Positions 1 through 19,300 of a stretch of DNA of 64,000 bases are shown here, one piece after another (the first letter of the stretch is position 1; every line of letters begins with the position of its first letter). Both the position numbers and the translations under genes were made by a program. The DNA is from Pseudomonadales bacterium. Lineage in GTDB: Bacteria; Pseudomonadota; Gammaproteobacteria; Pseudomonadales; Azotimanducaceae. The stretch is from the NCBI GenBank assembly GCA_963667455.2, contig CAXXFR010000019.1, positions 97,181 through 161,180 of the forward strand, given 5' to 3'. The notes beneath the pieces are model-generated. The model was not told the DNA's origin. It ran no database searches and saw nothing but the letters and a program-made list of their open reading frames with translations.

Positions 1-918
1 GTTGACATTGAATCAACGGACGATGTGCTCTTTGAGTGTCTCAATGCTATTGTTCGATTGACGGTTGCGAAGGATCGATTCGAACCAAACTCCTACGTCT
101 GGATCGTTTCCCGCACTGGAGATTTTCGCACCCTGACGTTGCGGTGCATTGCCCCTGGTTCTTGGATTCGAGATGTTGTCAAAGACTTTCGCAGCAGCAT
201 GCGGTTTTCGGGCACCCTCTCTCCCCATGACGTGTACGTCGCAAGTCACGGACTTCAGGGTCCTTTTCGGAGAGTGAACATAGAACCCGACCACAGACGA
301 TTCGGAGTGATGATCGTTCCAGACGTATCGACTTACTGGCGAGATCGGAGCGATAGTGCCGGATCAGTGGCAAGTATCGTGCGTACGGCAAGAGATGGAG
401 CAGTTGGCAATTGGCTCGTTGCCTTCCCTTCCTTTGAGTACATCAACTTGGTAAGTCAGTACTTTCTCGAAGATGAAGAAACACGCGAGCAGCAACGAGA
501 GATGCCAATTAGTGAGCGAAGTGAGTTTATTGGATGGATTTCTCAGGGATCGCGACGCGTTGCCTTCGTCACGATGGGCGGCATATTCACCGAGTCGGTA
601 GACATTGACGGAGATGTCTTAGCAGGAGTCATTGTGATTGGACCGGCAATACCTCCATCAAGTCTGGAACGGGAGCTAATCCGGGATACGTCGGAATTGG
701 GCTATGAACTGGCTTATCGCCAACCAGCTCTTACGCGAGTTGTTCAGGCTGCTGGACGAGTTGTGCGTGGACCGGCGGATCGAGGCGCGATCATTTTGGT
801 CGATCCTCGTTTTACGCATCGTGAGGTTCAGCAGTATTTTCCCAGCCATTGGGATCCGGAAGTCGTCCGTTGCGAGGACTTGGGTGAAGCATTGTCGAGG
901 TTCTCCCTAGCCATTTGA
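1..918 (+). CDS. DinG/XPD (Rad3)-family SF2 helicase, C-terminal part only (5' end lies outside the window)
   Basis: Frame 1 is open from base 1 to TGA 916-918. The translation carries the RecA2/Helicase_C_2-type half: MRFSGTLSP, VAFVTMGGIFTESVDIDGDVLAGVIVIGPAIPP and the motif VI-like QAAGRVVRGPADRGAIILVDPRF. Confidence 0.7.
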   Translation, partial: VDIESTDDVLFECLNAIVRLTVAKDRFEPNSYVWIVSRTGDFRTLTLRCIAPGSWIRDVVKDFRSSMRFSGTLSPHDVYVASHGLQGPFRRVNIEPDHRRFGVMIVPDVSTYWRDRSDSAGSVASIVRTARDGAVGNWLVAFPSFEYINLVSQYFLEDEETREQQREMPISERSEFIGWISQGSRRVAFVTMGGIFTESVDIDGDVLAGVIVIGPAIPPSSLERELIRDTSELGYELAYRQPALTRVVQAAGRVVRGPADRGAIILVDPRFTHREVQQYFPSHWDPEVVRCEDLGEALSRFSLAI

Positions 919-1097
919 CAGATCGGCGACGTTCAGTCTGCGTGGTCAAGCGCACTTGGGCTCTGCTCTCTCACACATACGAAGTTGGGAATTCAGCACA
1001 TTTCCCAGCCCTAGGATCGAATGTCCACGGTTGCATTGGCAGAGCTAGCAAGGCTCAGTTCATGTGACTCTAAACTCGTCGAAATTGCCCTGAAGAA

Positions 1098-1129
1098 GCG
1101 ACACAACTTGTCGCGTCCGTGTGGATACT
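1098..1129 (+). promoter_or_regulatory. Operator/promoter element copy 1: GCGACAcaactTGTCGC + 10 nt + ATACT
   Basis: The palindrome is at 1098-1114 with 6-bp arms. Exactly 10 nt separate it from ATACT at 1125-1129 (GATACT is -10-like). The same architecture and spacing occur at four sites, always upstream of a + strand gene of the array. Confidence 0.55.
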
Positions 1130-1131
1130 AG

Positions 1132-1255
1132 CGTCGAGTCTGATGCAGAACCCAGTTAGCGAATCATCCTAGTAGAGAGTTTTTTCATTCAACAACGAGG
1201 TACTTATTTTGGGGTTTCTTACTGAGGAAACGGGGTTTTGCGTCAGACTCTGACG
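1132..1255 (+). promoter_or_regulatory. Conserved structured 5' leader of A1 (putative cis-regulatory RNA)
   Basis: cgtcgagtctgatgc (1132-1146) can pair with gcgtcagactctgacg (1240-1255). This gives 4 bp + 11 bp with one bulged T and one G:U pair. The block is 81% identical to 2553-2675 upstream of A2. Confidence 0.3.
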
Positions 1256-1423
1256 ACCTCCGAGAGCTGGGAGACCACGACCCTTGACGGATTTCTTCAG
1301 GAGAACTCTCGAGTTGCCACACAATGACCCTCGTTGCCGTCGACTGACGCAGGTACGCAGACATCTCGGCGGCTAGTCGCTACCAAGAACGCAACGTAAA
1401 TTGGCAATGGAGTTAAGAGTCCA

Positions 1424-2320
1424 ATGACTGAGAATGAGACAGACACAGAAACAACTGAATGGCCCCTCTTTGAGGAAGTCAGTAAACGATGTGACGTACG
1501 TAGAGACTTTCCGAAGCTACTGAAGACGATTGAAGAGCACTCGTGCGGGATCGTCACAGCTCATCGCAACTACCCCACAAAGAGACAACGCAGGGCAATG
1601 GCCCGCGATGACGATGGATGGGGAGTTTTGCAGGAAGTTCAAGAAATCGAAGAACGAAATGTTAGCCTGAATCAAGATAGGCAAGAAAGGCTAGTCGAAC
1701 AGATCAACGAAGCGCGTTACAAGAGAATAGAGATTCGTCATATCTGTGGGAACATCGTGGAAGGGTCACTTCTGATTTGGCCTACCCGTGCCCGCAGAGG
1801 GCGAGACGAACCTCTGTTGCGATTCCTCAAGGACTTAAGCAAGAAATTCAATCAGAAGTCCTTCTACTTTTTGCCCTACCAGTCCCCTCCAATCATGTAC
1901 GATTTTCGGGATGGTCAATGGGTACCAGAGCGTAAGCGTGGAATTTCCACGTTGATTGACTTTGAACGAGTCCTGCAGGAACACAAGCAGGTTGCGTACC
2001 GCGATCTACCAGGACCCAAACTACCCAGCATTTCGGCCTGTGAGGTCGTCAAACTAAGCGATCCCATCCATCCCATACTTCGAAGCCAACGGGCAAGTCC
2101 TTCAATGGCCAAAGCCATGTTCTACAGGGATTTTCACCACAAGATTGACGTGATGGACTTCTTGTCGTCTATAGAGAGAGAAAGGCACCTTACCACTCTT
2201 CAGTATGAGACTCTCTTTGACCTTCTTGAATGGGCCGAATCGTCCTTGAGTTGGTTCACCCGGTCTCTCATCAATCTAAGGTATAGAAAACGTAACGATG
2301 TCGGAGAAGACGCGGAGTGA
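1424..2320 (+). CDS. Hypothetical protein A1 (298 aa), member of a 4-paralogue family with N-terminal SCGI(V/I)TAHRN motif
   Basis: ATG at 1424 is preceded by ggag. It shows 58% aa identity to A2 over 105 hand-aligned residues. Shared motifs are SCGIVTAHRNYP, EERN..RQERL, SLLIWP, ARRGRDEPLLRFLKDLSKKF.Q.SF and MDFLSSIERERH. Confidence 0.8.
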   Translation: MTENETDTETTEWPLFEEVSKRCDVRRDFPKLLKTIEEHSCGIVTAHRNYPTKRQRRAMARDDDGWGVLQEVQEIEERNVSLNQDRQERLVEQINEARYKRIEIRHICGNIVEGSLLIWPTRARRGRDEPLLRFLKDLSKKFNQKSFYFLPYQSPPIMYDFRDGQWVPERKRGISTLIDFERVLQEHKQVAYRDLPGPKLPSISACEVVKLSDPIHPILRSQRASPSMAKAMFYRDFHHKIDVMDFLSSIERERHLTTLQYETLFDLLEWAESSLSWFTRSLINLRYRKRNDVGEDAE

Positions 2321-2518
2321 CCGCGTTAGAAGGGATGGAACTGTTGAAAAGCCTCGGATCACCACCTGTCCCCCTAGGTCTGTTGCCTCCTCTAGCGGCG
2401 AGAATCAGGCATTCTTGTGTCGTTTCGAAATGGGAGCGCAGGCAAATACGCTGGGCGAGTGCAAGCGTGAGAGACGCACCCTGAGACAACACATCGCCGG
2501 TAAAGTCACCTTTTAGAA

Positions 2519-2550
2519 GCGACACAACTTGTCGCTACTGTGTGAATACT
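2519..2550 (+). promoter_or_regulatory. Operator/promoter element copy 2
   Basis: GCGACACAACTTGTCGC is at 2519-2535, followed by 10 nt and then ATACT at 2546-2550. Confidence 0.55.
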
Positions 2551-2552
2551 AA

Positions 2553-2675
2553 CGTCGAGTCTGATGCAGAGTCCTGTAAGCGAATCTTCATAGTAGACCG
2601 TTTATTCGTAGATCAATGAGGTACGTGGATTGCCTTTTCTTACTGAGAACTCGGGGTTTGCGTCAGACTCTGCCG
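2553..2675 (+). promoter_or_regulatory. Conserved structured 5' leader of A2 (putative cis-regulatory RNA)
   Basis: The same arms as in copy 1 are present (2553-2567 and 2660-2675). The inner 11-bp helix is identical. The outer 4-bp helix has one mismatch. Confidence 0.3.
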
Positions 2676-2895
2676 ATCGAGGAAGGCCTGTGGTCTGTGA
2701 GCCCTTGTCGAATGCGACCAAGAGAGCACTGGAGTCGCCTTGCAGGGACGAATCCTAGCAATTAGAAGGCAATCTGACCGATAGAGCGGCACCGCCATGA
2801 TTGTCGTTTCCATGGACTGGCGCCGATATGTAGACACATCGACGTGAAAGCACTGCGACGAACACAACACATCAGGGCATTGAGTACGGAATTCA

Positions 2896-3780
2896 ATGAC
2901 AAAACGTGAGACAAAGACTACACGGGAACCTGAATTTGAGGAGGTCAGTGATCGATCTGACCTAAGTAGCGATTTTCCGAAAGTGCTGAAGGCGATTGGA
3001 AAGCGCTCGTGTGGGATCATCACAGCTCATCGCAACTATCCTGACAAGAAACAACGAAGAGCACTCAGTGATCAAAGGCATGGTGACGGAGTATTTCATA
3101 TCGTTCGTGAAATGGAAGAACGAAATGTTCACTTCAATCGAATTCGACAAGAAAGGTTACAGGAACACATAAACGAGTCGTATTACACGCAGATTACGAT
3201 TGATCATCTGTCTAATGACATCTTGGAATCATCAAGCCTGATTTGGCCACTATTTGCCCGCAGAGGACGAGACGAATCTCTGTTGCGATTCCTCAAGGAC
3301 TTGAGCATGAAATTCGGTCAAAATTCCTTCTTCTTCTTCCCGTATCAATCGACTCCGCTCATGTACGAGTATCGGAGCGGTCTATGGACCTCAGAGAGCA
3401 AGTTCGAAATCTCCACACTGGATGACCTTGAACGAGTCTTGCAGGAGCTCAAGTGGGCTGCGTACCGTGATTTGCCAGGACCCGATTTGTCCACGATTTC
3501 AGCATGCGAGGTCATCAGGGTCTGGGGTCCAAGGCAACCCTGGACACGGATTCAACACGGAGGTCTTTTCATGGCAATAGCAATCTTGCATGGGATGTAT
3601 CTCCACAGACTTAAAAAGATGGACTTTCTATCGACCATCGAGCGAGAAAGGCACATTAGTACTCCGCAATATGAGAACCTGCTAAATTCTGTGAGATTGA
3701 ATCGGTTTAATCGCTTTCTCATCAATCTGAAGTACAGGAAACGGCGCGATGTCCATAAAGACGCGGAAGAGTCGAGTTAG
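2896..3780 (+). CDS. Hypothetical protein A2 (294 aa), paralogue of A1
   Basis: It is collinear with A1 and carries SCGIITAHRNYP, EERN..RQERL, SLIWP, ARRGRDESLLRFLKDLSMKFGQNSF and MDFLSTIERERH. Confidence 0.8.
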   Translation: MTKRETKTTREPEFEEVSDRSDLSSDFPKVLKAIGKRSCGIITAHRNYPDKKQRRALSDQRHGDGVFHIVREMEERNVHFNRIRQERLQEHINESYYTQITIDHLSNDILESSSLIWPLFARRGRDESLLRFLKDLSMKFGQNSFFFFPYQSTPLMYEYRSGLWTSESKFEISTLDDLERVLQELKWAAYRDLPGPDLSTISACEVIRVWGPRQPWTRIQHGGLFMAIAILHGMYLHRLKKMDFLSTIERERHISTPQYENLLNSVRLNRFNRFLINLKYRKRRDVHKDAEESS

Positions 3781-4179
3781 TCAAGAACGAATAGAGCTAT
3801 TGAAGACCTAGACACCCCAGTCTTCGCGCCGGAGTCTCCAACGAGAGGGATACGGCTCATCTAGCGGTGCGCGATTGAAGGTTGGCGAGCGGTCTCTCTC
3901 ATCGCACCATCCAGGATCTGATCAGCAGTCACTTCACTTACTGTTCTCTTCAGCCTCGAGAGCTCGTTTTGGTCACTGAGCTAAATCTGTGGACTGTTGA
4001 GGGAAGTGACACCGAAGCGGCTGGAATCATTGAGCCTTCTTTGCGAATTCGTCTCACGTCGAGTGTCGGACACTCTCTGAGACCCGTCGCGATGAAAACG
4101 GGGCCAGAACTCTCGGCGAGCACGGTCATAGGGGAAGCACTTTCAGACAGATCATCTCTTGCGAAATCACTCTCCAGAA

Positions 4180-4211
4180 GCGACACAACTTGTCGTTTGA
4201 GTGTGGATACT
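4180..4211 (+). promoter_or_regulatory. Operator/promoter element copy 3
   Basis: GCGACACAACTTGTCGT is at 4180-4196, followed by 10 nt and ATACT at 4207-4211. It lies about 95 nt upstream of the B1 ATG. Confidence 0.55.
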
Positions 4212-4306
4212 ACCGATGTTCTCGAGCCGTGGGCTAGTGTGGACTCCCGTCCGAGACCACTGAAAATTCAGTCAAATCCAATCCCAAAATCAGATCCAGG
4301 AGCACT

Positions 4307-6457
4307 ATGGTTGACCGATCATTAACCCGCCAGCGACCTACCCGTCGTAGCCATCAAAACGGCGCAAGCGCGGCTAAAGCGCAGATGAGGCCCATCTGTC
4401 GTTTATGGATTCTCCGCTTTTTGTGTGGCTATAGCAAGAACCGGAGGCACCTCGAGAGAAAGGGCGTGTGCAATTCAGACCTAGTTGAACGACTTCAACT
4501 CACGCCCCCCATTCCTCAGTCGGACAGCTCGACGGATGGAGTTGAACTAGGTACTCTGGATTCCGAACTGACGGTGGCTGAACGATCAGCCGAGCGTACC
4601 CTTCCACCCAAGGGACTGAGGGATAACGTGAGACGTGTCGGCAGATTGTTTGGATTGACAGAAGTCGAACACGACGTTCTTTCCCTTGCAATCCTGCTGT
4701 CAACGGATTCCGACCTGATTTCACACTTAGGCGTAGTGAATTCGTTGAACGTGAACGAAGTGGTTGCAATCGTCTCAACCGTACTCGCATGGGATGTCTG
4801 CGAAGTAGAGTCTGCCATTGATTCCGATGGAGGTCTCTACCGGCACGGACTGTTGCGCCCAGAGCATGAAGGGTCCGTTGACAACGGATTGGCCGATTGG
4901 TTGATCCCCTTCAGTCCAGACTTCGCTCGCAACATGATGCGAGACGATCAGAGGGAAGTATCGTTGTTCGCAGACGCATTCTGCATCGATCCTCCGACCG
5001 AACTGACGTTGAATGATTTCTCTTTTCTAGGTCGACCGTTGGACCACTTAAGGACCCACATCCTAAAGTCTGTCGATACGGGACAGCAGGGCGTGAATTA
5101 CCTGATCCATGGAGACAGCCGTACAGGCAAGACTGAATTCTGTCGCGCACTCGCGAGAGACACCGAATTGGTGCTACACGAAGTCTCTGTGGACGGCACA
5201 GACGAAGATGACGACGAATGCACGCGAAATCAGGCCGCAGTAACAATTGCACAGCAGCATGCCGAGAAGTCTCGAGGGCTTGTTGTCGTCGACAATGCCG
5301 ACTACTTGTTCCCAGAAGAAGAGGACAGCTTCTTCTCACGGAGGTCGCGACGACGTTCCAGAAGAATCGGCTTTGAAGAGACAGACAGTTCCATCGAACG
5401 CATATTGGCTTCAAACGGGTCGCCAACGATCTGGATTGTTCAAGACACTGAAGACATTAGTGAGAAATTCATCGATTCATTTGATCGAGTGTACGAAATG
5501 CAGACGCCACCTCCGAGACATCTTCGCGAGATTGTTCGCAAGCAACTTCCGAACTGCAATGAAGAACTCGTGAGAAGTGTCGCGTCCATTGCCGGATTGG
5601 ATTCGTCCTCAATCCAGAACGCACGTGACTTTGCATCAATTGTGGATGGGGATCCCAGTTCCGAGGCTTGGAATGAAGCTTTCATCGACAGCTTCAATGC
5701 TCGGCAGAAAGTACTCGATCGTCCTCCGATCAGGAGAAACGATCCGTCCATGCCAACAGACCTGTACAACATGCGCTACATCAATTCAAACCCCGGGTTG
5801 GATGGAATCATGCAGCGGATTAGGGCAGATTCGGGTGCTCGTATGCTTCTGCACGGACCTCCGGGAACGGGCAAGACCGCTTGGGTCAAGCACTTGGCAC
5901 AAGAGTTGCAAGTCGATCTTGTACAAGTCACGGCATCACAGATTCACAACAAGTATGTGGGCGAAACGGAGAAGAACCTCAGCAAGGTATTCGCACAAGC
6001 CGCCCAATCGGGAGCTCTGCTGTTGATCGATGAAGCCGACACCTTTCTCTACGACCGGCACGGGGCTAAACAGTCCTGGGAAGTGTCGTTTGTGAATGAG
6101 TTTCTAAGCCAGTTGGAGAACTACCTCGGATTGCTGGCGGCGACAACCAACTTTCGGCAGCTCGTTGACAGCGCTGCCATTCGTCGTTTCGGCATCAAGA
6201 TTGAGTTCATGTTTCTCACTTGGGAGCAAATCTCTTGGCTCTTCAGTGCCTATTGCGACCAGTACGGATTGCACATAACCGATGAACGGGAATTGCTTGA
6301 ATTACGTGGCGTTGGCGTCTTGACCCCAGGGGATTTTGCGGCTGTAGACGAACGCAATCGCTTTTGCCCGATTACTACGGTTCGAGAGTTTGTCGAGGCT
6401 CTGATCGAAGAGTGCTCCCACAAACGAGAGAGGGGATCGTTAGTTGGATTCCATTGA
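4307..6457 (+). CDS. Tandem-AAA+ ATPase B1 (716 aa): unassigned N-domain, D1 with Walker A but DNAD Walker B, canonical classic-clade D2
   Basis: D1 has Walker A GDSRTGKT (5111-5134) and Walker B VVVDNAD (5282-5302, no catalytic Glu). D2 has GPPGTGKT (5855-5878), YVGETEKNLSKVF (5948-5992), LLLIDEAD (6017-6040), ATTN and AAIRRF. Confidence 0.85.
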   Translation: MVDRSLTRQRPTRRSHQNGASAAKAQMRPICRLWILRFLCGYSKNRRHLERKGVCNSDLVERLQLTPPIPQSDSSTDGVELGTLDSELTVAERSAERTLPPKGLRDNVRRVGRLFGLTEVEHDVLSLAILLSTDSDLISHLGVVNSLNVNEVVAIVSTVLAWDVCEVESAIDSDGGLYRHGLLRPEHEGSVDNGLADWLIPFSPDFARNMMRDDQREVSLFADAFCIDPPTELTLNDFSFLGRPLDHLRTHILKSVDTGQQGVNYLIHGDSRTGKTEFCRALARDTELVLHEVSVDGTDEDDDECTRNQAAVTIAQQHAEKSRGLVVVDNADYLFPEEEDSFFSRRSRRRSRRIGFEETDSSIERILASNGSPTIWIVQDTEDISEKFIDSFDRVYEMQTPPPRHLREIVRKQLPNCNEELVRSVASIAGLDSSSIQNARDFASIVDGDPSSEAWNEAFIDSFNARQKVLDRPPIRRNDPSMPTDLYNMRYINSNPGLDGIMQRIRADSGARMLLHGPPGTGKTAWVKHLAQELQVDLVQVTASQIHNKYVGETEKNLSKVFAQAAQSGALLLIDEADTFLYDRHGAKQSWEVSFVNEFLSQLENYLGLLAATTNFRQLVDSAAIRRFGIKIEFMFLTWEQISWLFSAYCDQYGLHITDERELLELRGVGVLTPGDFAAVDERNRFCPITTVREFVEALIEECSHKRERGSLVGFH

Positions 6458-6912
6458 CCGGAACATCTCGTTGCTTGGTGAACGGAACTGCTCTTCGGAC
6501 GAAAACGTGCACTGCATCCGGGAACGGTCGAGAAGCAGCATGCAATCCTGTTGTTTTGTTTGACGTACTAGCCTGAATGGTTCGAAGTAATGGATTTCAC
6601 GGTGCGGCCGGTTGGAAGAGCCAGCCGCACAAGACCTGTCGAAGACTGTGTTGAATTGCCTTGTTTTAGATCGGTTGATCTGTGCGCTCGAGGGACGGCT
6701 CGTTGCAACTTCAGCTCCGTTTAGTCACCGGATTTGCATGGTCGGACCGTGCAATTGATGCCGATTTCGCCCGAAATTGATGATTTAGCGCAAAAAGTTG
6801 GGCAAATTACTTAACTTCTCAAGTCCTAATCGGAATATATAGGGGAGAGTTTGAATATTTTGGGTGACTTCCGTGCCAATTGTGCCGAAATTCGTGAATT
6901 CGCTTCGACAAC

Positions 6913-6944
6913 GCGACACAACTTGTCGTTTATTTGCGCATACT
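6913..6944 (+). promoter_or_regulatory. Operator/promoter element copy 4
   Basis: GCGACACAACTTGTCGT is at 6913-6929, followed by 10 nt and ATACT at 6940-6944. It lies about 97 nt upstream of ATG 7042. Confidence 0.55.
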
Positions 6945-7041
6945 GACATCTGTTCGCGCAATTGGGGCGATCATGCACCGGCATCAAAGAGGAGTGGATT
7001 TTCGCTCACGCCCCGTTGTAGCAGCGGATCCAGAGACCATC

Positions 7042-9192
7042 ATGATTGATCGATCAACCGACCGCCGGCGGACAAGCCGTCGAAGTGGACAGACAGACTC
7101 CAATACGGTAGCTGAGCGTGAAGACTCCCTACTTCGTCTGTGGACGCTTCGCTTCTGTTGCCGGTACGGCAAGATGCGCAGGCGCATTGAGAGGAACGGT
7201 CTGACCAACGCAATTCTGGTCGAGAAAATCCAGTCCGCCATGCGCGAGATCGGTTCGCACGACCTGAAAGCCAATAGCGCATTGGACGTTCTAAACTCCG
7301 AACTGAAGATAGCTCAGAGATCAGCCGAACAGACATTGCTTCCTGAGGGATTGCGAAACAATGTGCGGCGCTTGAGAGAGCTGTTTGACTTAACGGAAGT
7401 CGAAGCCGACATACTCACATTGGCAATCATGCTTTCGACCGACCTTGACCTGGCCTCCCAATTGAAAGTGTCGAAATCCTTGACGTTGGACGATGTCATT
7501 GAGATTGTCTCGGTTGTGCTCGACTTTAGCGTTCGCGACGTTCAGTCCGCTATCAATTCCGCTTCAGGTCTGTACAAGCACGGATTGCTACGCACAGAAC
7601 TTGCTCAATCAAAGCGCAAGGGCCTCGCGGCATGGCTGACTCCCTATAGCCCAGATCATGTTGCCAAGATGATGCAAGACAGTGAGAAGGAAGCACTGTT
7701 GATCGAAGACGCGTTTACCAAGGACTCTCCGACGGAACTGGTGTTGGAGGACTTTTCTTATCTCGGTCAGTCTCTTGACTTTCTGACAGCTCACTTCCGG
7801 CGGTCTGTTGAATCGGGAAAGACTGGCGTGAACTACTTGCTCCACGGAGATCGTGGATCCGGAAAGACCGAGTTCTGCAGAGCATTTTCCAAAGAAGTAG
7901 ATCGGGTTCTACTCGAGGTGGCTCAAGTAGAAACGGGAAGCGAAGTCATGGAACTCAAGCAGAGAACGTGCGCGGTGCTGCTGAGCCAGCGAATCGCCGA
8001 GAAACTAGGAGGATTCGTTGTTGTTGACAATGCCGACGAGTTGCTCCTGCATTTCGGGCAACGATATATGAATGCCAGTTTTCGATTTCAAGCAAGAAAC
8101 TGCGAGTTCGACGAGGCAGGCGAACCGTTAGAACGCATGATGGCTTCGAACCCGGTGCCCACAGTCTGGATCGTTCGCGACCAAGATGATGTCTTCGACG
8201 AGATCCTTGCTGAGTTTGACGGAGTGTATGAAATGCAGAGTCCATCGTCGACTCGCCTCAGGGAGATGGTCAAGAAACAACTTCCTGGTTGCGAGGAGAG
8301 TCTCGTGCGAAGAATCGCATCCGTACCGGGTATCAATCGGGCCACGATACATGCCGCTCGTGACTTCGCTTCAACAATCGCCGACAGTCCCCAATCTAGC
8401 GTTTGGGTCGAAGCTTTCATCGAAGCGTTCAATGCACGTCAGAAGATTCGCAAGAAACCTGTCATTGGAACGAATGTCCCCACGTTGCGAACTAGTCTGT
8501 ATCACGAACGCTACGTCAGTTCACAGCCAAACTTGGATGGAGTCATGCATCGCATTGGCGAAGAATGCAGAGCGCGATTGCTCCTATACGGACCGCCTGG
8601 GACTGGAAAGACTGCTTGGGCCGGGAACTTGGCCAAGGAGCTGGATATCGATCTGGTGCAAGTTACCGCATCGCAAATCCAACATCACTACCCAGGCAGA
8701 GCTGAAAGAAGAATCAGGAAAGTGTTCTCGAAAGCCCAACAATCAGGAGCACTGCTCTTGTTCGATGAAGCCGACACCTTCCTCTACGACCGTCGGAATG
8801 CACACCGATCTTGGGAAGTTTCTTTCGTGAATGAATTTCTCACACAGCTAGAGAACTACACAGGATTGATTGCGGCAACGACTAACCTACGGTCACTTGT
8901 CGATAGTGCGGCGATTCGTCGTTTCGACATTAAAGTAGAGTTCAAGTTTCTTGAGTTCGAGCAAGTGACAGGACTCTTTAGAGCTTACTGTGAACGGTAT
9001 GGATTACGCGTTACGGACGAACGAGAACTCGATGAGTTGCGCAACATTGGTGTGCTAACCCCAGGAGACTTCGCCGCCGTGGATGAACGAAGCCGCTTCT
9101 TCCCAATCCGGTCAGTTGAGCAGTTCAGGGAAGCTTTAATCGACGAGTGCTCTCTCAAGCCCGATTCCAATAGGCAATTTGGATTTCAGTAG
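7042..9192 (+). CDS. Tandem-AAA+ ATPase B2 (716 aa), paralogue of B1
   Basis: I moved the start from the ORF-track TTG 6934 to ATG 7042. MIDRSTDRRRTSRRSGQ then parallels the B1 N-terminus MVDRSLTRQRPTRRSHQ, the length becomes identical to B1, and 6934 lies inside the promoter element. Motifs: D1 GDRGSGKT and VVVDNAD; D2 GPPGTGKT, LLLFDEAD, AAIRRF. Confidence 0.85.
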   Translation: MIDRSTDRRRTSRRSGQTDSNTVAEREDSLLRLWTLRFCCRYGKMRRRIERNGLTNAILVEKIQSAMREIGSHDLKANSALDVLNSELKIAQRSAEQTLLPEGLRNNVRRLRELFDLTEVEADILTLAIMLSTDLDLASQLKVSKSLTLDDVIEIVSVVLDFSVRDVQSAINSASGLYKHGLLRTELAQSKRKGLAAWLTPYSPDHVAKMMQDSEKEALLIEDAFTKDSPTELVLEDFSYLGQSLDFLTAHFRRSVESGKTGVNYLLHGDRGSGKTEFCRAFSKEVDRVLLEVAQVETGSEVMELKQRTCAVLLSQRIAEKLGGFVVVDNADELLLHFGQRYMNASFRFQARNCEFDEAGEPLERMMASNPVPTVWIVRDQDDVFDEILAEFDGVYEMQSPSSTRLREMVKKQLPGCEESLVRRIASVPGINRATIHAARDFASTIADSPQSSVWVEAFIEAFNARQKIRKKPVIGTNVPTLRTSLYHERYVSSQPNLDGVMHRIGEECRARLLLYGPPGTGKTAWAGNLAKELDIDLVQVTASQIQHHYPGRAERRIRKVFSKAQQSGALLLFDEADTFLYDRRNAHRSWEVSFVNEFLTQLENYTGLIAATTNLRSLVDSAAIRRFDIKVEFKFLEFEQVTGLFRAYCERYGLRVTDERELDELRNIGVLTPGDFAAVDERSRFFPIRSVEQFREALIDECSLKPDSNRQFGFQ

Positions 9193-9399
9193 AGTGCCTA
9201 GATCTTTAATGAGAGTGTCCCATCGCCGTCTGGTTGAGATTGAAGTGTCCGTGCTTCATGAACCCCCGCCCAGTAGGACTAATTCCTTCTCCCGATACGT
9301 CTCAAGCCACGAACCAAGAATCAATCCAACATCTAATCGATCTAGTACCACTGCCCAAGTCGCAGAGACTTGCAATTTTGAACCGATAGGAGTCTACCA

Positions 9400-10053
9400 A
9401 TGAACACGCCGAAACGAACGAACCGGCCTCATCGTAGCGAGTCGGACACCAGCAATTTAGAGCCATCTTTCCAGAACATGCTGAAAGTTCGCCGGAAATT
9501 CTCGTGCGGGATGATCTCTGCGCACAAAATCGTATACGGCCGCAAGAGCCGTCAATCAGCTAAGGGGACAAGTGCTATGCAGGCCGCTGACGGACACCTT
9601 TCGTTCCGAGAACATATACAAGACAATCATTTGCTTCACATCAGGTTATCCGGGCTTTCTCCTGACTGGATGTATGAGGAGAAAAATGAAGAACGTGAGA
9701 AAGAGATGGCTTCTGTCATAAGTCAGAGCGGCTATAACCAATTTCTGATGGAGAGCTTCTTCGCAAGGGTCAAGATAAACTCGTTTTGGGTTTGGAACGA
9801 CGCAGACCCAGGCGCGGGCAGTGGAGATCTTTTGACCTTTCTTCAGCGATTGGCAAAGGATTTCGAACAAGACTCATTTCAGCTCATTCCGTTCAAGAAG
9901 CAAATAACCCTGTACAGACGAGATTTGGACATCAATGGAGCTTGGAATGGCAACTGGCTCACTACGGGAATGGGATACATATCGAAAGTGAAGACGGGGC
10001 AGGTCCGTGTAGCTGAAAGTTATCGTCTGCTAGAGATTACTGGACCTCATTAG
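9400..10053 (+). CDS. Hypothetical protein A3 (217 aa), distant and shorter A-family member
   Basis: An aggag RBS precedes ATG 9400. It shares SCGMISAHK, EEREKEMA, FWVWND, LLTFLQRLAKDFEQDSF with A1/A2 in the same order. It lacks the C-terminal third. Confidence 0.7.
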   Translation: MNTPKRTNRPHRSESDTSNLEPSFQNMLKVRRKFSCGMISAHKIVYGRKSRQSAKGTSAMQAADGHLSFREHIQDNHLLHIRLSGLSPDWMYEEKNEEREKEMASVISQSGYNQFLMESFFARVKINSFWVWNDADPGAGSGDLLTFLQRLAKDFEQDSFQLIPFKKQITLYRRDLDINGAWNGNWLTTGMGYISKVKTGQVRVAESYRLLEITGPH

Positions 10054-10177
10054 AGTCTATTGTCCTATCGGATTTATCACTACCTGAATCGGTGCAAGTG
10101 CCGTCGACTGTGGCGCGTTGACTCTAGCACATACATTTCGAAAACTGAAGCGAACTACAGCTAATGGGAGCGAATCA

Positions 10178-11173
10178 ATGAATGACACTACTTTGTGTTG
10201 CCCAAGTGAACAGGGCACACCTTTCGAAGAGCAAGAATTTGAGACTACGATAAGTGAATTGTTGGAGATTTGTGCGAATTTCTCGTATGGAATATTGTCA
10301 GCACAACGCAATCGGTTCAACTTGAATAGTCTACAGGACTTCAAGAGTCTATTTGCGCGAGTCGAGAGCGGAGTCATCGATCCAGTGCAGGTCGTGCAGC
10401 AGTTGTTGCAAAGGAACCGAACATTGCAACGTGAAAACGCGTTAGTTAATGAAAGGCGGGAGAATAAGCTCGCGTCGGTCATAACCTATGAGCGTCTAGA
10501 TCGATTCAATATTCGAGGTGTCTTTGAGGATTCCGTGGACACTGACTTTTTGGTTTGGTATGACGGTGACTCGGACAACCAGATGGCTGATTTGCTACTC
10601 ACGCTTCTCAAAGAGCAGAGTGCGAATTTCGGTCAACATTCGTTCATCTACCAACGCAAGGATGAGCCGGTGTGTCGATATTCTCGATCATGGAATGGCG
10701 ATAGCGGCCAGTTCGGCGAGTGGCTAGTCGAGAGCGTTGGATCTGTGTCGACGCTCCAAGATCTTGAGAGGTTGTTGGGACGAAGCAAACTGACATCATT
10801 CCTCAATTGGGCTGGTATTGATGTGGAAGCTCGAATTGACTCAGAATCAGGTTCGGAGAAAGCTTCTCCTACGCTCGTAGACTTGATTTCGCAACAGTCT
10901 ATGGGCTACACAATTCGACGAGTTATTGGTCCGATTGAAGGCTGGGATGGAAGTTACGGTTTCTTCTCCGGGTTGGCAAATCAGGAGCGAGATTCGGAGG
11001 CTAAGTGTCACATGGATACGGTGGCGTTCTTGGAAGAAATAGCCAAAGAGCGATATATCTCGACCACGGAATTTGAAGCGATCGCGGATCGACTCGAGGC
11101 GAAGAGGAAAAGGCTTAGCAGGGGTGTGCGTCGGCGGATAGCTCGAAAGTTCCCGTTGTTTAGTGAGAGTTGA
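10178..11173 (+). CDS. Hypothetical protein A4 (331 aa), distant A-family member
   Basis: I prefer ATG 10178 (gggag lies 8 nt upstream) over the ORF-track TTG 10118. It shares SYGILSAQRN, NERRENKLA, FLVWYD, LLLTLLKEQSANFGQHSF, VSTLQDLERLL and AFLEEIAKERYIST with A1/A2. Confidence 0.7.
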   Translation: MNDTTLCCPSEQGTPFEEQEFETTISELLEICANFSYGILSAQRNRFNLNSLQDFKSLFARVESGVIDPVQVVQQLLQRNRTLQRENALVNERRENKLASVITYERLDRFNIRGVFEDSVDTDFLVWYDGDSDNQMADLLLTLLKEQSANFGQHSFIYQRKDEPVCRYSRSWNGDSGQFGEWLVESVGSVSTLQDLERLLGRSKLTSFLNWAGIDVEARIDSESGSEKASPTLVDLISQQSMGYTIRRVIGPIEGWDGSYGFFSGLANQERDSEAKCHMDTVAFLEEIAKERYISTTEFEAIADRLEAKRKRLSRGVRRRIARKFPLFSES

Positions 11174-11336
11174 AGCGACGTAGTTGACTCCCGCCAATTG
11201 GGTGTGCAGTGCACCGTGAAGGGTCGGATTCAGTGATGGGTGAAATCAGCATGGAATTCAATGCCGTTGGCACCAGGTGTCGTTGACATAAGCGAGCGGA
11301 GTATGATTTCTTGAGCTTGACTTACTCCTCTTCCGA

Positions 11337-12335
11337 ATGCCCGCTCGGCAACACAGCATCGATACCACCCTATTCGCGTTGGCCGTTATCAAACGAATCC
11401 CAAGGGAACAGACCATTTCGGCGCAAGAGCTCACGGACCAACTGGAGGAAGCAGGAATTGATCGAAACGTGAGATCAGTGCAACGCATGCTTAAGGTGCT
11501 TTCTTCACACTTCGACATTGACTGCGACACAGATCACCGCCCGCATCGCTACTGTTGGAAACCGAACGCGGCCGCGATGCTGATTCCCATGGTCGAGCAG
11601 AACGAAGCATTGATGTTGCTATTTGCGGAACGATTTCTGGCAAACATCCTGCCGCCGGGTGCATTGCCATCGTTTGAAGGAATTCTCAAACAAGCCCACG
11701 ACATGCTTGTCAACAAGCAACAGTCGCATGGTCAGTGGTTGGACAAGGTCCGCGTGGCTCATCCCACGCCTTTACTGTATCCGCCTGATGTCGATCCGGA
11801 CGTGCTCCGGTCGGTTTCCGAATGCTTATTCGAGAATCGAAAACTGCGCTTGAATTACCGAAACAGGAGAGGGGAATTGAACGATTGGGTGGTTCTTCCG
11901 CTTGGATTGGTTACTCGTGCACAAGTGCTCTACTTGATTTCAAAGTTCGATGACAGTGATACCCACTATCGACTTGCGTTACACCGGATGGTTTCGGTGC
12001 ACCCAACGACCATTCGTTTTGCTCCTCCCGCAGATTTCGACATTGACCAGAGCATCGCGGAGTATGGATTCTCGCCGGGAAATCGCAAAGTCGTGAAGCT
12101 GGAGTTTTATGTCGATAGAAGGGCTGGGAATCACCTGACCGAGTCCCTACTCTCGAAAGATCAGGTCTGCACTGAGCTGGAGCACGAGTACCATATAGCC
12201 GCTACGGTCCGGGACTCGATTGAACTGCGACATTGGTTGTGCGGATTCGGCGACTCCATCAGAGACATATCCATCGACGGAGAACGAGTCAACATCAACG
12301 AGTCAAGAACTTGGTTTGGTGGTGATTTAGAGTAG
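11337..12335 (+). CDS. WYL-domain transcriptional regulator (wHTH - WYL - C-terminal WCX-like domain)
   Basis: The N-terminal wHTH is IPREQTISAQELTDQLEEAGIDRNVRSVQRMLKVL. The central WYL-type segment is LRLNYRNRRGELNDWVVLPLGLVTRAQVLYLISKFDDSDTHYRLALHRM. The C-terminal part is VKLEFYV...IELRHWLCGFGDSI. Confidence 0.75.
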   Translation: MPARQHSIDTTLFALAVIKRIPREQTISAQELTDQLEEAGIDRNVRSVQRMLKVLSSHFDIDCDTDHRPHRYCWKPNAAAMLIPMVEQNEALMLLFAERFLANILPPGALPSFEGILKQAHDMLVNKQQSHGQWLDKVRVAHPTPLLYPPDVDPDVLRSVSECLFENRKLRLNYRNRRGELNDWVVLPLGLVTRAQVLYLISKFDDSDTHYRLALHRMVSVHPTTIRFAPPADFDIDQSIAEYGFSPGNRKVVKLEFYVDRRAGNHLTESLLSKDQVCTELEHEYHIAATVRDSIELRHWLCGFGDSIRDISIDGERVNINESRTWFGGDLE

Positions 12336-12461
12336 CGGTTCGGCAACGACCAGCGTCCATCGAGGAAGTACGTGCGCCGACTCAATTCATCGCGGGTGAA
12401 GACAGTTTTTCTTGGAGCTGTGCAATCCCTTGAAGACGGACATGGAAAGGAGATTTGACAA

Positions 12462-13172
12462 GTGTCCCAATCCGATAATTCTGACATCAGTGTGATCAAG
12501 ACACGCAAGATTCCGTGGTACAGAAAACACTTACCAGTGGTCGCCCTAAGTGTGGCGATCATTGTCGTAAGTGCGACGTTACTGCATCATATGATGAGTT
12601 CCAATGCATCGAACTTGACGGTCGAGATCATGGCTGCAGTGGTTGCAGTGGTCCTGGTGGTGGCATCCGTGGCCGTAACATTGCACTTTCAGTCTGACTA
12701 TGAAGTGGAGAGAGACTGTAAGACCGAGATATTTAAGAAACGATTGGAGATTTATGAACATATTCTTGAAATGTATTCTGAGCTGGATGACGAAGACAAT
12801 ATTAACGAGGACAAACTCAACAAGATTCAGAATCTTGCTTTAAGAGCATCTTTGGTAGCCACGACCGACGTCACTGCTTCAATGGCAAACTACACCCGAA
12901 ATATCTGGCTTGAAAGGAAGCTATACTTTAGTGATCAGGAAGTGAAAGACCTTCAGGATAAGTTTGGAGATGATCCGCAGAGAAGGATGTATCCCGGGTC
13001 ATTTCGAAGTTTGGTAAAAGAGATGAGAGAAGACTTGAATCTTATCGAAGAAGAGGACAAGAAGAAGTTCCTAGAGGAATCGATCAAGATTTTGGTCAAT
13101 ATCGAAAAGAAGTCACAACCGAAACACACCGTAGCTAGACCTGGTCAGCAAGAGGAATTGCGTAGCGCCTAG
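12462..13172 (+). CDS. Hypothetical membrane protein: 2 N-terminal TM helices plus a charged helical domain
   Basis: GTG 12462 lies 9 nt after aaggag. The TM segments are LPVVALSVAIIVVSATLLHHM and VEIMAAVVAVVLVVASVAVTLHF. The C-terminal part is K/E/D-rich. Two sampled 60-nt lines (12721, 12781) have 18/60 and 22/60 G+C. Confidence 0.6.
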   Translation: MSQSDNSDISVIKTRKIPWYRKHLPVVALSVAIIVVSATLLHHMMSSNASNLTVEIMAAVVAVVLVVASVAVTLHFQSDYEVERDCKTEIFKKRLEIYEHILEMYSELDDEDNINEDKLNKIQNLALRASLVATTDVTASMANYTRNIWLERKLYFSDQEVKDLQDKFGDDPQRRMYPGSFRSLVKEMREDLNLIEEEDKKKFLEESIKILVNIEKKSQPKHTVARPGQQEELRSA

Positions 13173-16349: not shown

Positions 16350-19300
16350 TTATCTGATCGACTGACTGTCGATGTAAACCCTTGCATGATCACTGTACGC
16401 CGACGTCACTCTCGAGAGCTGTGGCAGGAATGGGCTTGATCGAGCCGGAAGCCCGTTGATTTCTTCGATGACCATCTTGCCGTTACACACCGAATGCGGC
16501 ATGTCTATGAACAGTCGGTCAAGCCTCTCGTCTTGGGGCTTCGCAAACACTTGCAGTTTCTTTCCTTGAGCCGTACAAGTGCAAAGTAGCTCGCCATCAA
16601 CAAATCCAAGGTAATTACCCACTCGTCGATCAGGGAGTTCCGGCCATTCGACGCCCATGCCGCAAGGAGCAGCAGGGTCGTAGGCGGACAGCCACACTGA
16701 ATGTTGCGACTTGGCCGCCAGTGCGTGAACCGCATCGGGTCTTGCGAATTGGGGTCCCGACAGCTCCATGAAGAAGATGCCAGATGTCAGTTCTCCAGAG
16801 AGCTCCATGATTCTCAAGGCGTCGAACAGAGCTCGCCATCGAAATACGCCTCCTTCTCGGTTGGCAATCTCTCGCGTAACGACTCCGTAGCGACTCAAGA
16901 GAATGCGAACTCTCTCCTTGGCTTCCTCAAGTTGCTCGATGGGATCGGAATCCGGTACTGACTCGCTAGTGTCGGTTCGATACCAAGTTCCAGGCCTCGA
17001 AGGTTGTCGTCTTCTTCTCACAAGCCTCCTGCGCAGGGTGCCATCGACGGCACCAGAGACTCCGACCCTGAATTTCCGCTCTGCGCCTGTACGAAGCGGA
17101 ATGATGCTGTCGGAAGAGATTTCTCCACGCCAAACGGCACTCCAGAAGACCTCATTGAATTCATCCAAGAGCATCGAGCAGTTGCTTTGAAGTGTGGAGA
17201 ACGTGTACTGCCCTTGTGGATCGACAAAGCCCTGAACCGGCGGCTCATTGTCCTGGCTCTCAGTCGGACCGAAGGCGAGATCATCTGGAAAGCCCATCGT
17301 GATTCGCTCTCGCTCGGTTCCACGCCAACACACCTGTTGCAGTTGCAAGCACTCCTCGAGTTCGTGCTTCGGAATGCTGTTGCAACGGGCCAACCACACG
17401 TCCTTCAGCCAATAGTCGATTGGTGCGCTGTAGCCCCGCAAGCGCTCCACGACATCTACGACAGAGTCCGCACTAGAACGCATCTTCGAGAACTGTTGCC
17501 AGCGTTCGCAGAAAACCGTCCAATTACGAATAGACACCGGTTCAACAGCGGATCTGTTGGAGAGTCTCTGGAGCCGTAGCAGTGCGTCGAGGTTCTCGCG
17601 ATCACAAGTTCGCAGAGTGACTTCGTCTTCGACTTGAACGTCGTCCGTCAGTATTTCCCGAGTCACTAAATCCGAGAGAATGTCGATGACCTGCTTGCGG
17701 TCGAGAGGGATCAGAGCAAGAAATTCCTCTTGTGTGCGAGGGCCGTAGAACTGCAACGCATTGGCAACTGCTTGTGTAGGGTTGTTGCGTATCAACTCAC
17801 TGTTCTCGGCATGAATGAGTCCCCGCCAGCCGGATTCTTCGATCACTTCGACATGTGATGGGATTTCGGCTTCCTCAAACCATTCCGTTTGCGGAATCCA
17901 TACGCGGGTCTTGATCCATTCTTCAAGCTCCAGTGGATCTTCAGGCTCGTAACCGGGCATTCGTCGCTGAAGTTTGAGTTCGAATTCCTCGATCACGTTT
18001 GCCGTAATCGGGGGTCGCAGGCTCGGATCCCGAATTGCCGCCGAGACCAATTCCTCCGACAACTTGGAAGACTTTGTGCCCTCGGGCGAGTCGTCCGCAT
18101 ACATGTAGCGACCGATCTGGTCATACGAAATGTCCGAAGCAAACACGCTGGGCACGCTGTTGCGAACGACGATGATCTCGATCAGTCCGTCCGAAAGACG
18201 AGCTAGCACCTCGCGTGCCGCAATGAGATCGAACTCATCCTGGAGACAGGTGCGCCAAGTCTCCAACAAGACTGGGAAGTCGTCATAATCCTGGGCGGCC
18301 TCAAGTAGCTTCTTGGACTGCATGCGAGTCATCCACAACGGAACACGTTGATCGAAACGGCTCTTGTTCAACAACAACGAACGACCGGCGCACTCTCGGA
18401 ATCTAGCACCAAAGAACCCTGAGTGTTCCAAAGCTTGCGCCAAACGTTCGTCGAGCCGGTCCGGATCGAGAAATCCAAGAATGGTCTGGACATCGGCTTG
18501 TTGCTTCAACTGAATCGCAATCGTGTAGTTGTCGCAAAACATGTCGGGTTCCGACCGGAAAGTCTCTCTCCATGCGGTGGACAGCGCCATCGTGATTGGA
18601 CGGTTAACTCGGCCGCCCCAATTGGTGTGCAGGATTAACTGCTCATCGCTGGCTCCTGACACATAGGTGCCCGGGCCGCTAGCAAGCTGTTCAGCGATCA
18701 AGTTTTCCTGGTGAGGAAGCACGGTAGTTGCGTTGCGCTGTTGTACGAGCAGTTCAACCAAGTCTCGGGCCGCCGTTTTGTCAAATCCGCGGTTGTCGAG
18801 CAGTTCCAACAGTGCAGGCTGGTCGTCTTGACTCAAGAGTTCGTCTGCAGTCTTGAGGAATCGGCCTACCAGACTGGCGAAGTGGAAGTCTCGATCATTG
18901 AATTCGGAGCGAAAGAACGGAACCGCCGCTTCGGAAGTCGGGGCACTGCGCACCGAAACGTCGTTATGCGAAATCGATGAAATCGCCCATTGCTGCGATC
19001 CGAACGTCAGGTTCTGTCCGATCTTGGCTTCCCATACATACTCTTCGTCGAGTTCGCCGATCAGTGCGCCTGTATCGGCGTGACGCAGTCGGTAGTAGCC
19101 CCGATCGGGAATCGCGCCGCCTGAGGAATACAGGGCCATCGCTGCACTCTTTCGAGCCGAGATCTTCTGGGTTGATTGGTCGATGGCGATGCGAGGACGA
19201 AGGCTGCGAATTCTGGCATCTTCGAAACGGCCTGTGAGCATTCCGAGCACTCGATCAAAATCTTGACGATCGAGTTTGGAATAGGAGTAGCTACGAATCA

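Follow-up and report, generated by a model that had tools for sequence, protein, structure and literature searches.

The DNA analysed here, called the window in what follows, is a stretch of 64,000 nt from a bacterium of the Pseudomonadales (family Azotimanducaceae; GenBank assembly GCA_963667455.2, contig CAXXFR010000019.1, positions 97,181 to 161,180). Close to its start a 32-bp block, consisting of a palindrome and a -10-like hexamer at a fixed distance, occurs four times, in each case ahead of one of four genes that we designate A1, A2, B1 and B2, and a gene for a WYL-domain transcription regulator lies in the same cluster. We interpret the block as a promoter element that is probably bound by this regulator. 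The genes and the parts of the block are listed below by position in the window.

25-918: DinG/XPD-like helicase gene, inside which the window begins
1098-1114 (+): putative palindromic regulator site of the A1 promoter, GCGACACAACTTGTCGC; exact match, with the same consensus upstream of B/WYL cassettes elsewhere
1124-1129 (+): GATACT, the -10-like hexamer of the A1 promoter, separated from the palindrome by 9 nt, the spacing being fixed at N9/N10 in related sites
1424-2320 (+): A1, orphan protein of 298 amino acids (aa), predicted to be the first regulated gene
2519-2535 (+): putative palindromic regulator site of the A2 promoter, exact match
2545-2550 (+): AATACT, the -10-like hexamer of the A2 promoter, separated from the palindrome by 9 nt
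2896-3780 (+): A2, paralogue of A1 (57% identity)
4180-4196 (+): putative palindromic regulator site of the B1 promoter, exact match, base 17 is T
4206-4211 (+): GATACT, the -10-like hexamer of the B1 promoter, separated from the palindrome by 9 nt
4307-6457 (+): B1, double AAA+ ATPase, 716 aa
6913-6929 (+): putative palindromic regulator site of the B2 promoter, exact match, base 17 is T; at the orthologous position before the B gene in related loci L001, L003, L004, L006 and L007
6939-6944 (+): CATACT, the -10-like hexamer of the B2 promoter, separated from the palindrome by 9 nt
7042-9192 (+): B2, double AAA+ ATPase, 55% identical to B1
9400-10053 (+): C, short paralogue of the A family, without a promoter block of its own and probably co-transcribed with B2
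10178-11173 (+): D, paralogue of the A family, 331 aa
11337-12335 (+): WYL-domain transcription regulator (winged helix-turn-helix, three-helix bundle, WYL, WCX), 332 aa, proposed to bind the four sites

The four-copy block

The window was scanned with the pattern GCGACACAACTTGTCGY-N10-ATACT, which is equivalent to GCGACACAACTTGTCG(C/T)-N9-(G/A/C)ATACT. Full matches with 0 mismatches are found at 1098-1129, 2519-2550, 4180-4211 and 6913-6944, all on the + strand, and these are exactly the four copies that had been reported in an earlier, sequence-only reading of this DNA. None would be expected by chance (100 dinucleotide shuffles gave 0.00 matches), and raising the tolerance to 3 mismatches did not add a further full-pattern match. 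The block is laid out as a 17-bp palindrome, GCGACA-CAACT-TGTCG(C/T), followed after 9 nt by the hexamer, which reads GATACT, AATACT, GATACT and CATACT in copies 1 to 4. The first 16 bases are the same in all four copies, while base 17 divides them into a C pair (copies 1 and 2) and a T pair (copies 3 and 4); the inverted arms GCGACA/TGTCGC, which the earlier reading had ascribed to the element in general, thus extend over 6 bp in the first two copies but only over 5 bp in the other two.

When the upstream regions were aligned, the 32-bp block was the only part common to all four, the remainder being essentially unrelated except for the leaders of A1 and A2. No further copy was detected in the remaining ~57 kb of the window. 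Relaxed window scans (up to 3 mismatches in a 15-mer, or half-site mismatches in GCGAC-N7-GTCGC) returned weak matches only, none of them with a -10-like hexamer, and no site before C, D or the WYL gene. As the block has stayed invariant while A1/A2 and B1/B2 diverged to 57% and 55% identity, the 16 identical bases appear to be held by selection, and judged by this comparison the block is a selected element and not a fresh duplication.

With a transcription start assumed ~7 nt past the hexamer, and with start codons at ATG 1424 (A1), ATG 2896 (A2), ATG 4307 (B1) and ATG 7042 (B2), the predicted leaders are ~288, ~339, ~89 and ~91 nt long, in good agreement with the earlier estimates of ~290, ~340, ~90 and ~90 nt. 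The sequence-only reading had further proposed four separate transcription units under one operator. The shared element is supported by our analysis; we prefer, however, to regard it as an activator site taking the place of the -35 element rather than as an operator, and the fourth unit probably runs on through C and D, because no site or recognisable promoter precedes these genes. Possibly it also includes the WYL gene.

Conservation and promoter geometry

The WYL regulator served as the starting point for collecting relatives. Its homologues with 50-58% identity are found in a conserved neighbourhood consisting of a FAN1-like nuclease, a DinG-like helicase, B, WYL, a 217-aa protein, an acyl-CoA dehydrogenase and Lhr; we refer to these relatives as planctomycete-like, a label that reflects an impression from gene content only. 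One palindrome copy is present upstream of B in each of five loci (L001, L003, L004, L006 and L007), with the consensus GCGACACA[AT]G[TC]TGTCGC for the palindrome and, at 9 nt, GACAAT or GTTAAT. The B-WYL pair of Ramlibacter sp. G-1-2-2 (L008; WYL 41% identity) is situated amid defence-type genes and is accompanied by three palindrome copies, one before B and two before paralogous unknown genes (5881-7044 and 17224-18543; 369 and 342 aa; 38% identical; no Pfam match), which flank a stretch holding B, WYL, DUF2779 and GmrSD genes.

A profile search of metagenomes with five proteobacterial WYL sequences yielded 216 relatives, from which 80 loci (L032-L111; 505 kb) were kept, chosen by WYL homology only. 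In this set GCGAC-N7-GTCGC occurs 33 times, in 27 loci, vs 0-4 times for the same half-sites at the other spacings from N3 to N11, an enrichment of at least 8-fold; with 1 mismatch allowed, there are 101 N7 sites vs 27-48 at other spacings. The site is present at 27 of the 29 B genes for which upstream sequence was available. These comparisons support the view that element and WYL regulator go together, in planctomycete-like loci as well as in proteobacterial ones.

A complementary search was made from the DNA side, using the exact 16-mer of the window together with A-n-T at the hexamer position against 185,579 species genomes (GTDB collection, the source genome not being among them). It gave 16 matches, about the chance number estimated from the size of the collection. 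Six of the 16 are situated 25-66 nt upstream of a B homologue, in Gamma- and Betaproteobacteria, with a WYL homologue in three of these six loci. Matches before a 5'-nucleotidase (PF06189) gene in Thalassolituus marinus (L009 4257-7825) and before a DUF932 gene in a metagenome-assembled genome of the Comamonadaceae also look genuine. In the Thalassolituus locus the 5'-nucleotidase gene comes directly after open reading frames read by eye as umuD- and umuC-like and one for a protein with a Pfam-confirmed LPD1 domain; no B or WYL gene was found within 8 kb of the promoter copy, which suggests that some genomes have unlinked regulon members. Exact copies number one per genome, or two where a contig is apparently duplicated, and the element is thus not like a repetitive extragenic palindromic (REP) sequence. 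A scan of viral contigs for the 17-mer gave 6 matches, all of them lacking a B or WYL gene and a convincing hexamer, and thus no link to phages.

For an analysis of the geometry, 51 non-identical metagenome sites were oriented by positions 6-7 only (GCGACAC), that is, independently of the downstream sequence. A hexamer of the form nAnAnT follows the palindrome in 29 of the 51 sites, after 9 nt in 23 cases and after 10 nt in 6, while any other offset (3 to 15), or the opposite side of the palindrome, accounts for at most one site each. The consensus of the metagenome sites is T-GCGACACA-nnn-TGTCGC-A-N8-GAtAAT. Between hexamer and start codon there are 24-28 nt in most related sites, leaving space for a start site plus a ribosome-binding site.

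A -35 element was not recognised: at a spacing of 16-18 bp most sites agree with TTGACA in no more than 3/6 positions (GACACA), and a better match, GCGACA, sits 20 bp away. An extended -10 is present in only 1 of 53 sites, and an AT-rich upstream (UP-like) tract was not found in them. In the window, a scan of 800-12600 for canonical sigma-70 promoters returned 0 sites vs 8.8 expected from shuffled sequences; ordinary promoters are seemingly depleted across the whole gene cluster. If the hexamer is taken as -12 to -7, the palindrome covers ~-38 to -22 and its proximal TGTCG ~-27 to -23; this numbering assumes that the hexamer is a -10 element, and the transcription starts are predicted from sequence. 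The proposal of the sequence-only reading that ATACT belongs to a -10-like hexamer, with the palindrome over the -35 region, is well in line with the fixed N9/N10 spacing, these positions and the lack of a canonical -35. The single orientation, the -10-like hexamer at a fixed distance and the start codon beyond it support an interpretation of the block as a promoter-type element. Two palindromes 25 bp apart and in opposite orientation were seen upstream of B in one metagenome locus (L091 618-659), where a double site or a divergent promoter pair is possible.

The WYL regulator and how the site may be read

The 11337-12335 product has a Pfam WYL domain, and WCX was found in its relatives. A single-sequence phmmer search of the PDB gave no match, while the family profile matches PafBC (5e-13) and DriD (2e-10 to 1e-9, covering WYL-WCX only) far better than BrxR (5e-3) and CapW (1e-2). 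The AlphaFold2 (AF2) model, which is of moderate quality (predicted local distance difference test, pLDDT, 76; predicted template modelling score, pTM, 0.44), consists of a winged helix-turn-helix with helices 2-20, 29-38 and 45-58 plus a wing, three helices within 88-137, and beta-rich WYL and WCX domains. Its best Foldseek match is full-length DriD bound to DNA and single-stranded DNA (ssDNA) (8tp8; E 1.6e-12 over 315 columns; 16-18% identity), followed by PafBC on RNA polymerase and then by CapW and BrxR (4e-8 to 4e-5). The residues R46, Q49 and R50, on the predicted recognition helix (45-58), do not vary among 19 homologues; of the 149 best family representatives, 128 have the pattern R[ST]x[QE]R. 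The subfamily comprises 1536 clusters (50% identity) at E<=1e-30. From these profile and model comparisons we regard the regulator as a distant relative of DriD in a large subfamily of its own, and not as an orthologue. A profile of the N-terminal helix-turn-helix region alone (11337-11560) matched only TAL-effector repeats in the PDB and yielded no residue-level alignment to DriD; the matches are spurious, because R[ST]VQRxLxxL resembles ETVQRLLPVL, and they constitute a trap for automated annotation.

Three WYL activators provide the closest precedents. DriD of Caulobacter crescentus (targets didA, bapE, CCNA_03891, recJ and dnaG) recognises ATACGAC(N7)GTCGTAT, with R37 and R41 as the readers of G2 and of the guanine opposite C4, and E40 as the reader of C1 (PMC10853764); in its target promoters, which have no -35, the site lies across the -35 position and keeps a constant distance to the -10 (PMC13004042). 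The block in the window has in common with it the palindromic core CGxC-N7-GxCG, the position over the place of the missing -35, the constant distance to the -10 and the occurrence of one site at several promoters, and the two proteins are alike in domain order (winged helix-turn-helix, three-helix bundle, WYL, WCX), and in the R-[ST]-x-[EQ]-R pattern of the recognition helix, and DriD is the best structural match. They differ in the flanks (ATACGAC vs GCGAC here, with a site centre that is not notably AT-rich) and in the regulated genes, which here are unrelated (AAA+ ATPase, DUF2779, orphan families).

PafBC of mycobacteria, which acts independently of RecA by what has been called "sigma adaptation", binds tGTCgg(N10)tA(N3)T, read by R46/R50 of PafB at -28 to -23, and replaces recognition of the -35 (PMC8635444). 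It is comparable as a WYL activator with a GTC half-site at ~-28 to -23, a canonical -10, no -35 and an Arg-x3-Arg reader (the same R46/R50 numbering is coincidental), and it is the best sequence-profile match in the PDB; it differs in being a heterodimer or fusion of two WYL proteins on a single non-palindromic element, whereas a single WYL gene, with no second one in the window locus or in relatives, and a full palindrome are found here, in having its half-site 1 nt farther from the -10, and in controlling ~150 genes rather than a small local regulon. SiwR of Mycobacterium smegmatis responds as an activator to ssDNA and genotoxic stress, and binds a palindrome between -35 and -10 of which the -26 region is essential (PMC10693628). 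It is a homodimer on an imperfect palindrome at the promoter of an adjacent operon, as proposed for the protein here, the operon of SiwR being dinB-like; unlike here, the palindrome is 19 bp long with a GGA triplet at -26, there is one known target operon, and the genes are different.

The explanation that we favour, and consider probable as a whole, is a DriD-like activator-dependent promoter bound by a WYL homodimer. It is built on what was computed here: the element with its fixed geometry and no -35, its conservation and co-occurrence with the regulator in distant bacteria, and the regulator's fold and helix pattern. The promoter would be a composite one, with a GCGAC-N7-GTCGC palindrome centred at ~-30, a sigma-70-type -10 hexamer exactly 9 nt further on, and no -35. 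A homodimer of the regulator would bind the palindrome via its winged helix-turn-helix domains, two recognition-helix arginines reading the guanines of each CGAC/GTCG half-site. The proximal half-site (~-27 to -23) would then occupy the position of the "-26 element" of PafBC, and the whole site would cover the place of the -35, as in DriD promoters, so that the bound regulator could substitute for -35 recognition and recruit RNA polymerase. The trigger would probably be binding of ssDNA, arising from DNA damage or from attack by phages or mobile elements, to the WYL domain, and A1, A2, B1 and B2 (with C and D, and perhaps the regulator itself) would be switched on together. In half-site, reader residues, position and missing -35 the element matches, by analogy, the design of WYL-activator promoters, and it would add to this known class. 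The regulator had already been named as the candidate binder from its adjacency, a suggestion that is strengthened by the co-occurrence of protein and site across lineages and by a half-site and arginine pair resembling those of DriD and PafB.

Several observations weigh against this explanation. The gap between GTCGC and the hexamer is 9 nt here but 8 nt for DriD, as read from published sequences (the CCNA_03891 promoter, as we read it, has GTCGC, 8 nt, GACAAT), and the half-site of PafBC lies 1 nt farther out; the geometry is thus similar but not identical to both. The operon controlled by the site ends with the regulator gene itself in many loci of Proteobacteria, an arrangement that suits negative autoregulation by a repressor at least as well as positive feedback. 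Many of the neighbouring and cargo genes are defence-like (SIR2, GmrSD neighbours), the setting in which the repressors BrxR and CapW are found. The ssDNA pocket of DriD is only partly kept, with both tyrosines conserved (Y168 in 19/19 and Y192 in 18/19 homologues), R204 present as R or Y, R176 as R/K in 11/19, and R207 replaced by Ala. Identity to DriD is just 16-18%, with nothing retrieved by the single-sequence PDB search, and the apparent likeness of the recognition helices is one of residue pattern, not of residue-level structural alignment.

The strongest competing explanation, which we consider unlikely though by no means negligible, retains the same element and the same WYL protein but has the latter act as a repressor of the BrxR/CapW type, whose dimer, seated on the palindrome across the core promoter's upstream half, blocks RNA polymerase until ssDNA or another signal releases it. 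WYL repressors are well documented in defence islands (BREX, CBASS and others), where homodimers bind inverted repeats near the promoters of neighbouring genes, with repeated sites possible, and CapW also binds ssDNA. The co-transcription of the regulator, in many loci as the final gene of the controlled operon, the defence-type cargo with GmrSD genes nearby in some of them, and a palindrome over the core promoter, the classic layout for a repressor, would all be accommodated. On the other hand, BrxR and CapW repress promoters that are intrinsically active, whereas promoters lacking a -35, an extended -10 and a UP-like tract are predicted to be weak unaided and would leave little to repress. 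The operator of BrxR is also different in kind, with 11-bp repeats and a 5-bp spacer downstream of the -10 (PMC9122601), while the site here lies upstream of the -10 in the place of the -35. In profile and fold comparisons DriD and PafBC, both activators, come closer to the regulator than BrxR and CapW do, and the three-helix bundle of its model is typically seen in WYL activators that form homodimers. The distance to the -10 is held strictly constant across more than 50 diverged sites, which also speaks for stereospecific contact with RNA polymerase. We hold activation by the WYL protein to be clearly the more probable mode of the two, and that the block is a promoter bound by this protein appears, from the sequence comparisons, much more certain than the choice between activation and repression.

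It is far less probable that the palindrome is read by another factor, such as an alternative sigma factor, a regulator whose gene lies elsewhere, or the AAA+ protein B through one of its domains. The co-occurrence is, admittedly, with the entire B-(DUF2779)-WYL cassette and not with WYL alone, and three loci (L009, L010 and L023) have no WYL gene within the stretch examined. Against such a factor, the WYL protein is the only one with a helix-turn-helix domain identified among the cassette proteins scanned, and the cassette recurs in all lineages examined; a GTCG half-site read by an Arg-x3-Arg pair is documented in two solved complexes of WYL proteins with DNA; the symmetry of the site calls for a dimeric factor and not a sigma factor; and there is no linked sigma gene.

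That the block is a repeat of structural or mobile nature, such as a REP-like element, an intrinsic-terminator hairpin serving the upstream gene or a recombination site, can be set aside as highly improbable: copy 4 (6913-6929) was flagged as terminator-like by a scan, with a T-rich run behind it, and the copies sit where gene content varies between relatives, but such a T run follows just one of the four copies, the stem has only 5-6 bp and the "loop" is conserved as strongly as the arms, the element keeps one orientation relative to the downstream gene with -10 hexamer and start codon at fixed distances, and the copy number, only four in 64 kb and 1-3 per related locus, does not resemble the REP-like scatter for which the sequence-only reading had advised checking.

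LexA-independent sensing of DNA damage by WYL activators (PafBC, DriD, SiwR) has been understood only recently, and in detail so far only in Actinobacteria and Caulobacter. The locus described here points to a further large and apparently uncharacterised subfamily, whose site and promoter geometry are directly evident in the sequence, and a WYL dimer in place of the -35 is probably a general promoter design.

The cassette, the genes behind the promoter and the A-family leaders

The core cassette in Proteobacteria is B (double AAA+ ATPase)-DUF2779 (RNase H-like superfamily)-WYL, with genes that often overlap (e.g. L038 2289-6957). Composite sites (n=68) are situated before B in 26 cases, before DUF2779 in 10, before WYL in 2 and before other genes in 30. 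These other genes include FtsZ/tubulin-like (7 loci) and WD40-FtsK_gamma (3) genes, and further ones for SIR2, SprT-like, DnaB_C-like, trypsin-like protease, RNase_T exonuclease, HDAC-like and cpYpsA proteins. Because the controlled genes are mostly unknown or conflict-related, the promoter flags candidates for new damage-response or defence functions, and as its consensus holds from planctomycete-like genomes to Proteobacteria, it may be used to predict controlled genes in any genome. The FtsZ/tubulin-like protein is secreted-looking, with Pfam Tubulin and FtsZ_C (L032 2403/2438, L036, L037, L042, L061, L073 and L109), and in at least one of these loci (L032) the promoter of its gene stands back to back with another such promoter; it resembles the division inhibitor DidA, which is controlled by DriD, in function only and not in sequence.

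None of the papers searched links DUF2779 with WYL regulators or describes the B-DUF2779-WYL cassette, and the B-(DUF2779)-WYL regulon appears to be undescribed so far. A broader proposal, which we offer tentatively as a possibility short of the probable, is that the AAA+ (B)-(DUF2779 nuclease-like)-WYL cassette and its private 32-bp promoter form a portable, LexA-independent "alarm regulon" of genomic islands, which would sense ssDNA and recruit any gene that acquires the block, the window then being an expanded damage- or phage-triggered system. If so, FtsZ-like proteins, SIR2, proteases and exonucleases would be the recruits elsewhere, and the orphan A/C/D family with its own leader RNA the recruits here; the window, with two B genes, four A-family genes and four promoters, would be an unusually expanded example of a previously unrecognised system.

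The four genes A1, A2, C and D are paralogous; they belong to a single orphan family and have motifs in common, e.g. SCGIxxAHRN. The family has no match in Pfam, PADLOC, NCBIfam or PHROG, and a search of 5.8 billion proteins found homologues on only two other contigs. The AF2 model of the A family (pLDDT 74) gave no significant fold match in the PDB and only weak, uninformative matches to uncharacterised phage proteins. Weak matches (E>=0.018) to HUH-Rep-like proteins were rejected, as there is no conserved His motif.

The leaders of A1 and A2 have a second conserved feature, with which both transcripts are predicted to begin:

1136-1250 (+): conserved, putatively structured 5' leader element of A1
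2557-2670 (+): conserved, putatively structured 5' leader element of A2

The element is ~115 nt long and would be closed by a stem of 14-18 bp, GAGUCUGAUGCAGA.../...UGCGUCAGACUC. Rfam gave no match, either at the gathering threshold for the whole window or at E<=1 for 1000-4400. A third copy is found at L025 8864-8976, behind the same promoter (GCGACACAATTTGTCGC-N9-CACACT) and before a C-family gene, downstream of sbcCD, on the only other contig with C/D homologues. As the stem is invariant and there are only three copies, covariation neither supports nor refutes the structure.

Relatives have a single B gene ahead of WYL, to which B1 and B2 each show 32-35% identity, and B2 occupies the position of that gene. 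Compared with the DinG-B-WYL arrangement of the relatives, the window has A1, A2 and B1 inserted ahead of B2, and C and D inserted after it. The stretch from the DinG-like helicase to the WYL gene (918-11337 in the window) is variable among L001, L003, L004, L006 and L007: most of these relatives have B alone between DinG and WYL, while L004 adds an island with cytosine methylase, HATPase_c_3, Z1 and DUF4420 genes.

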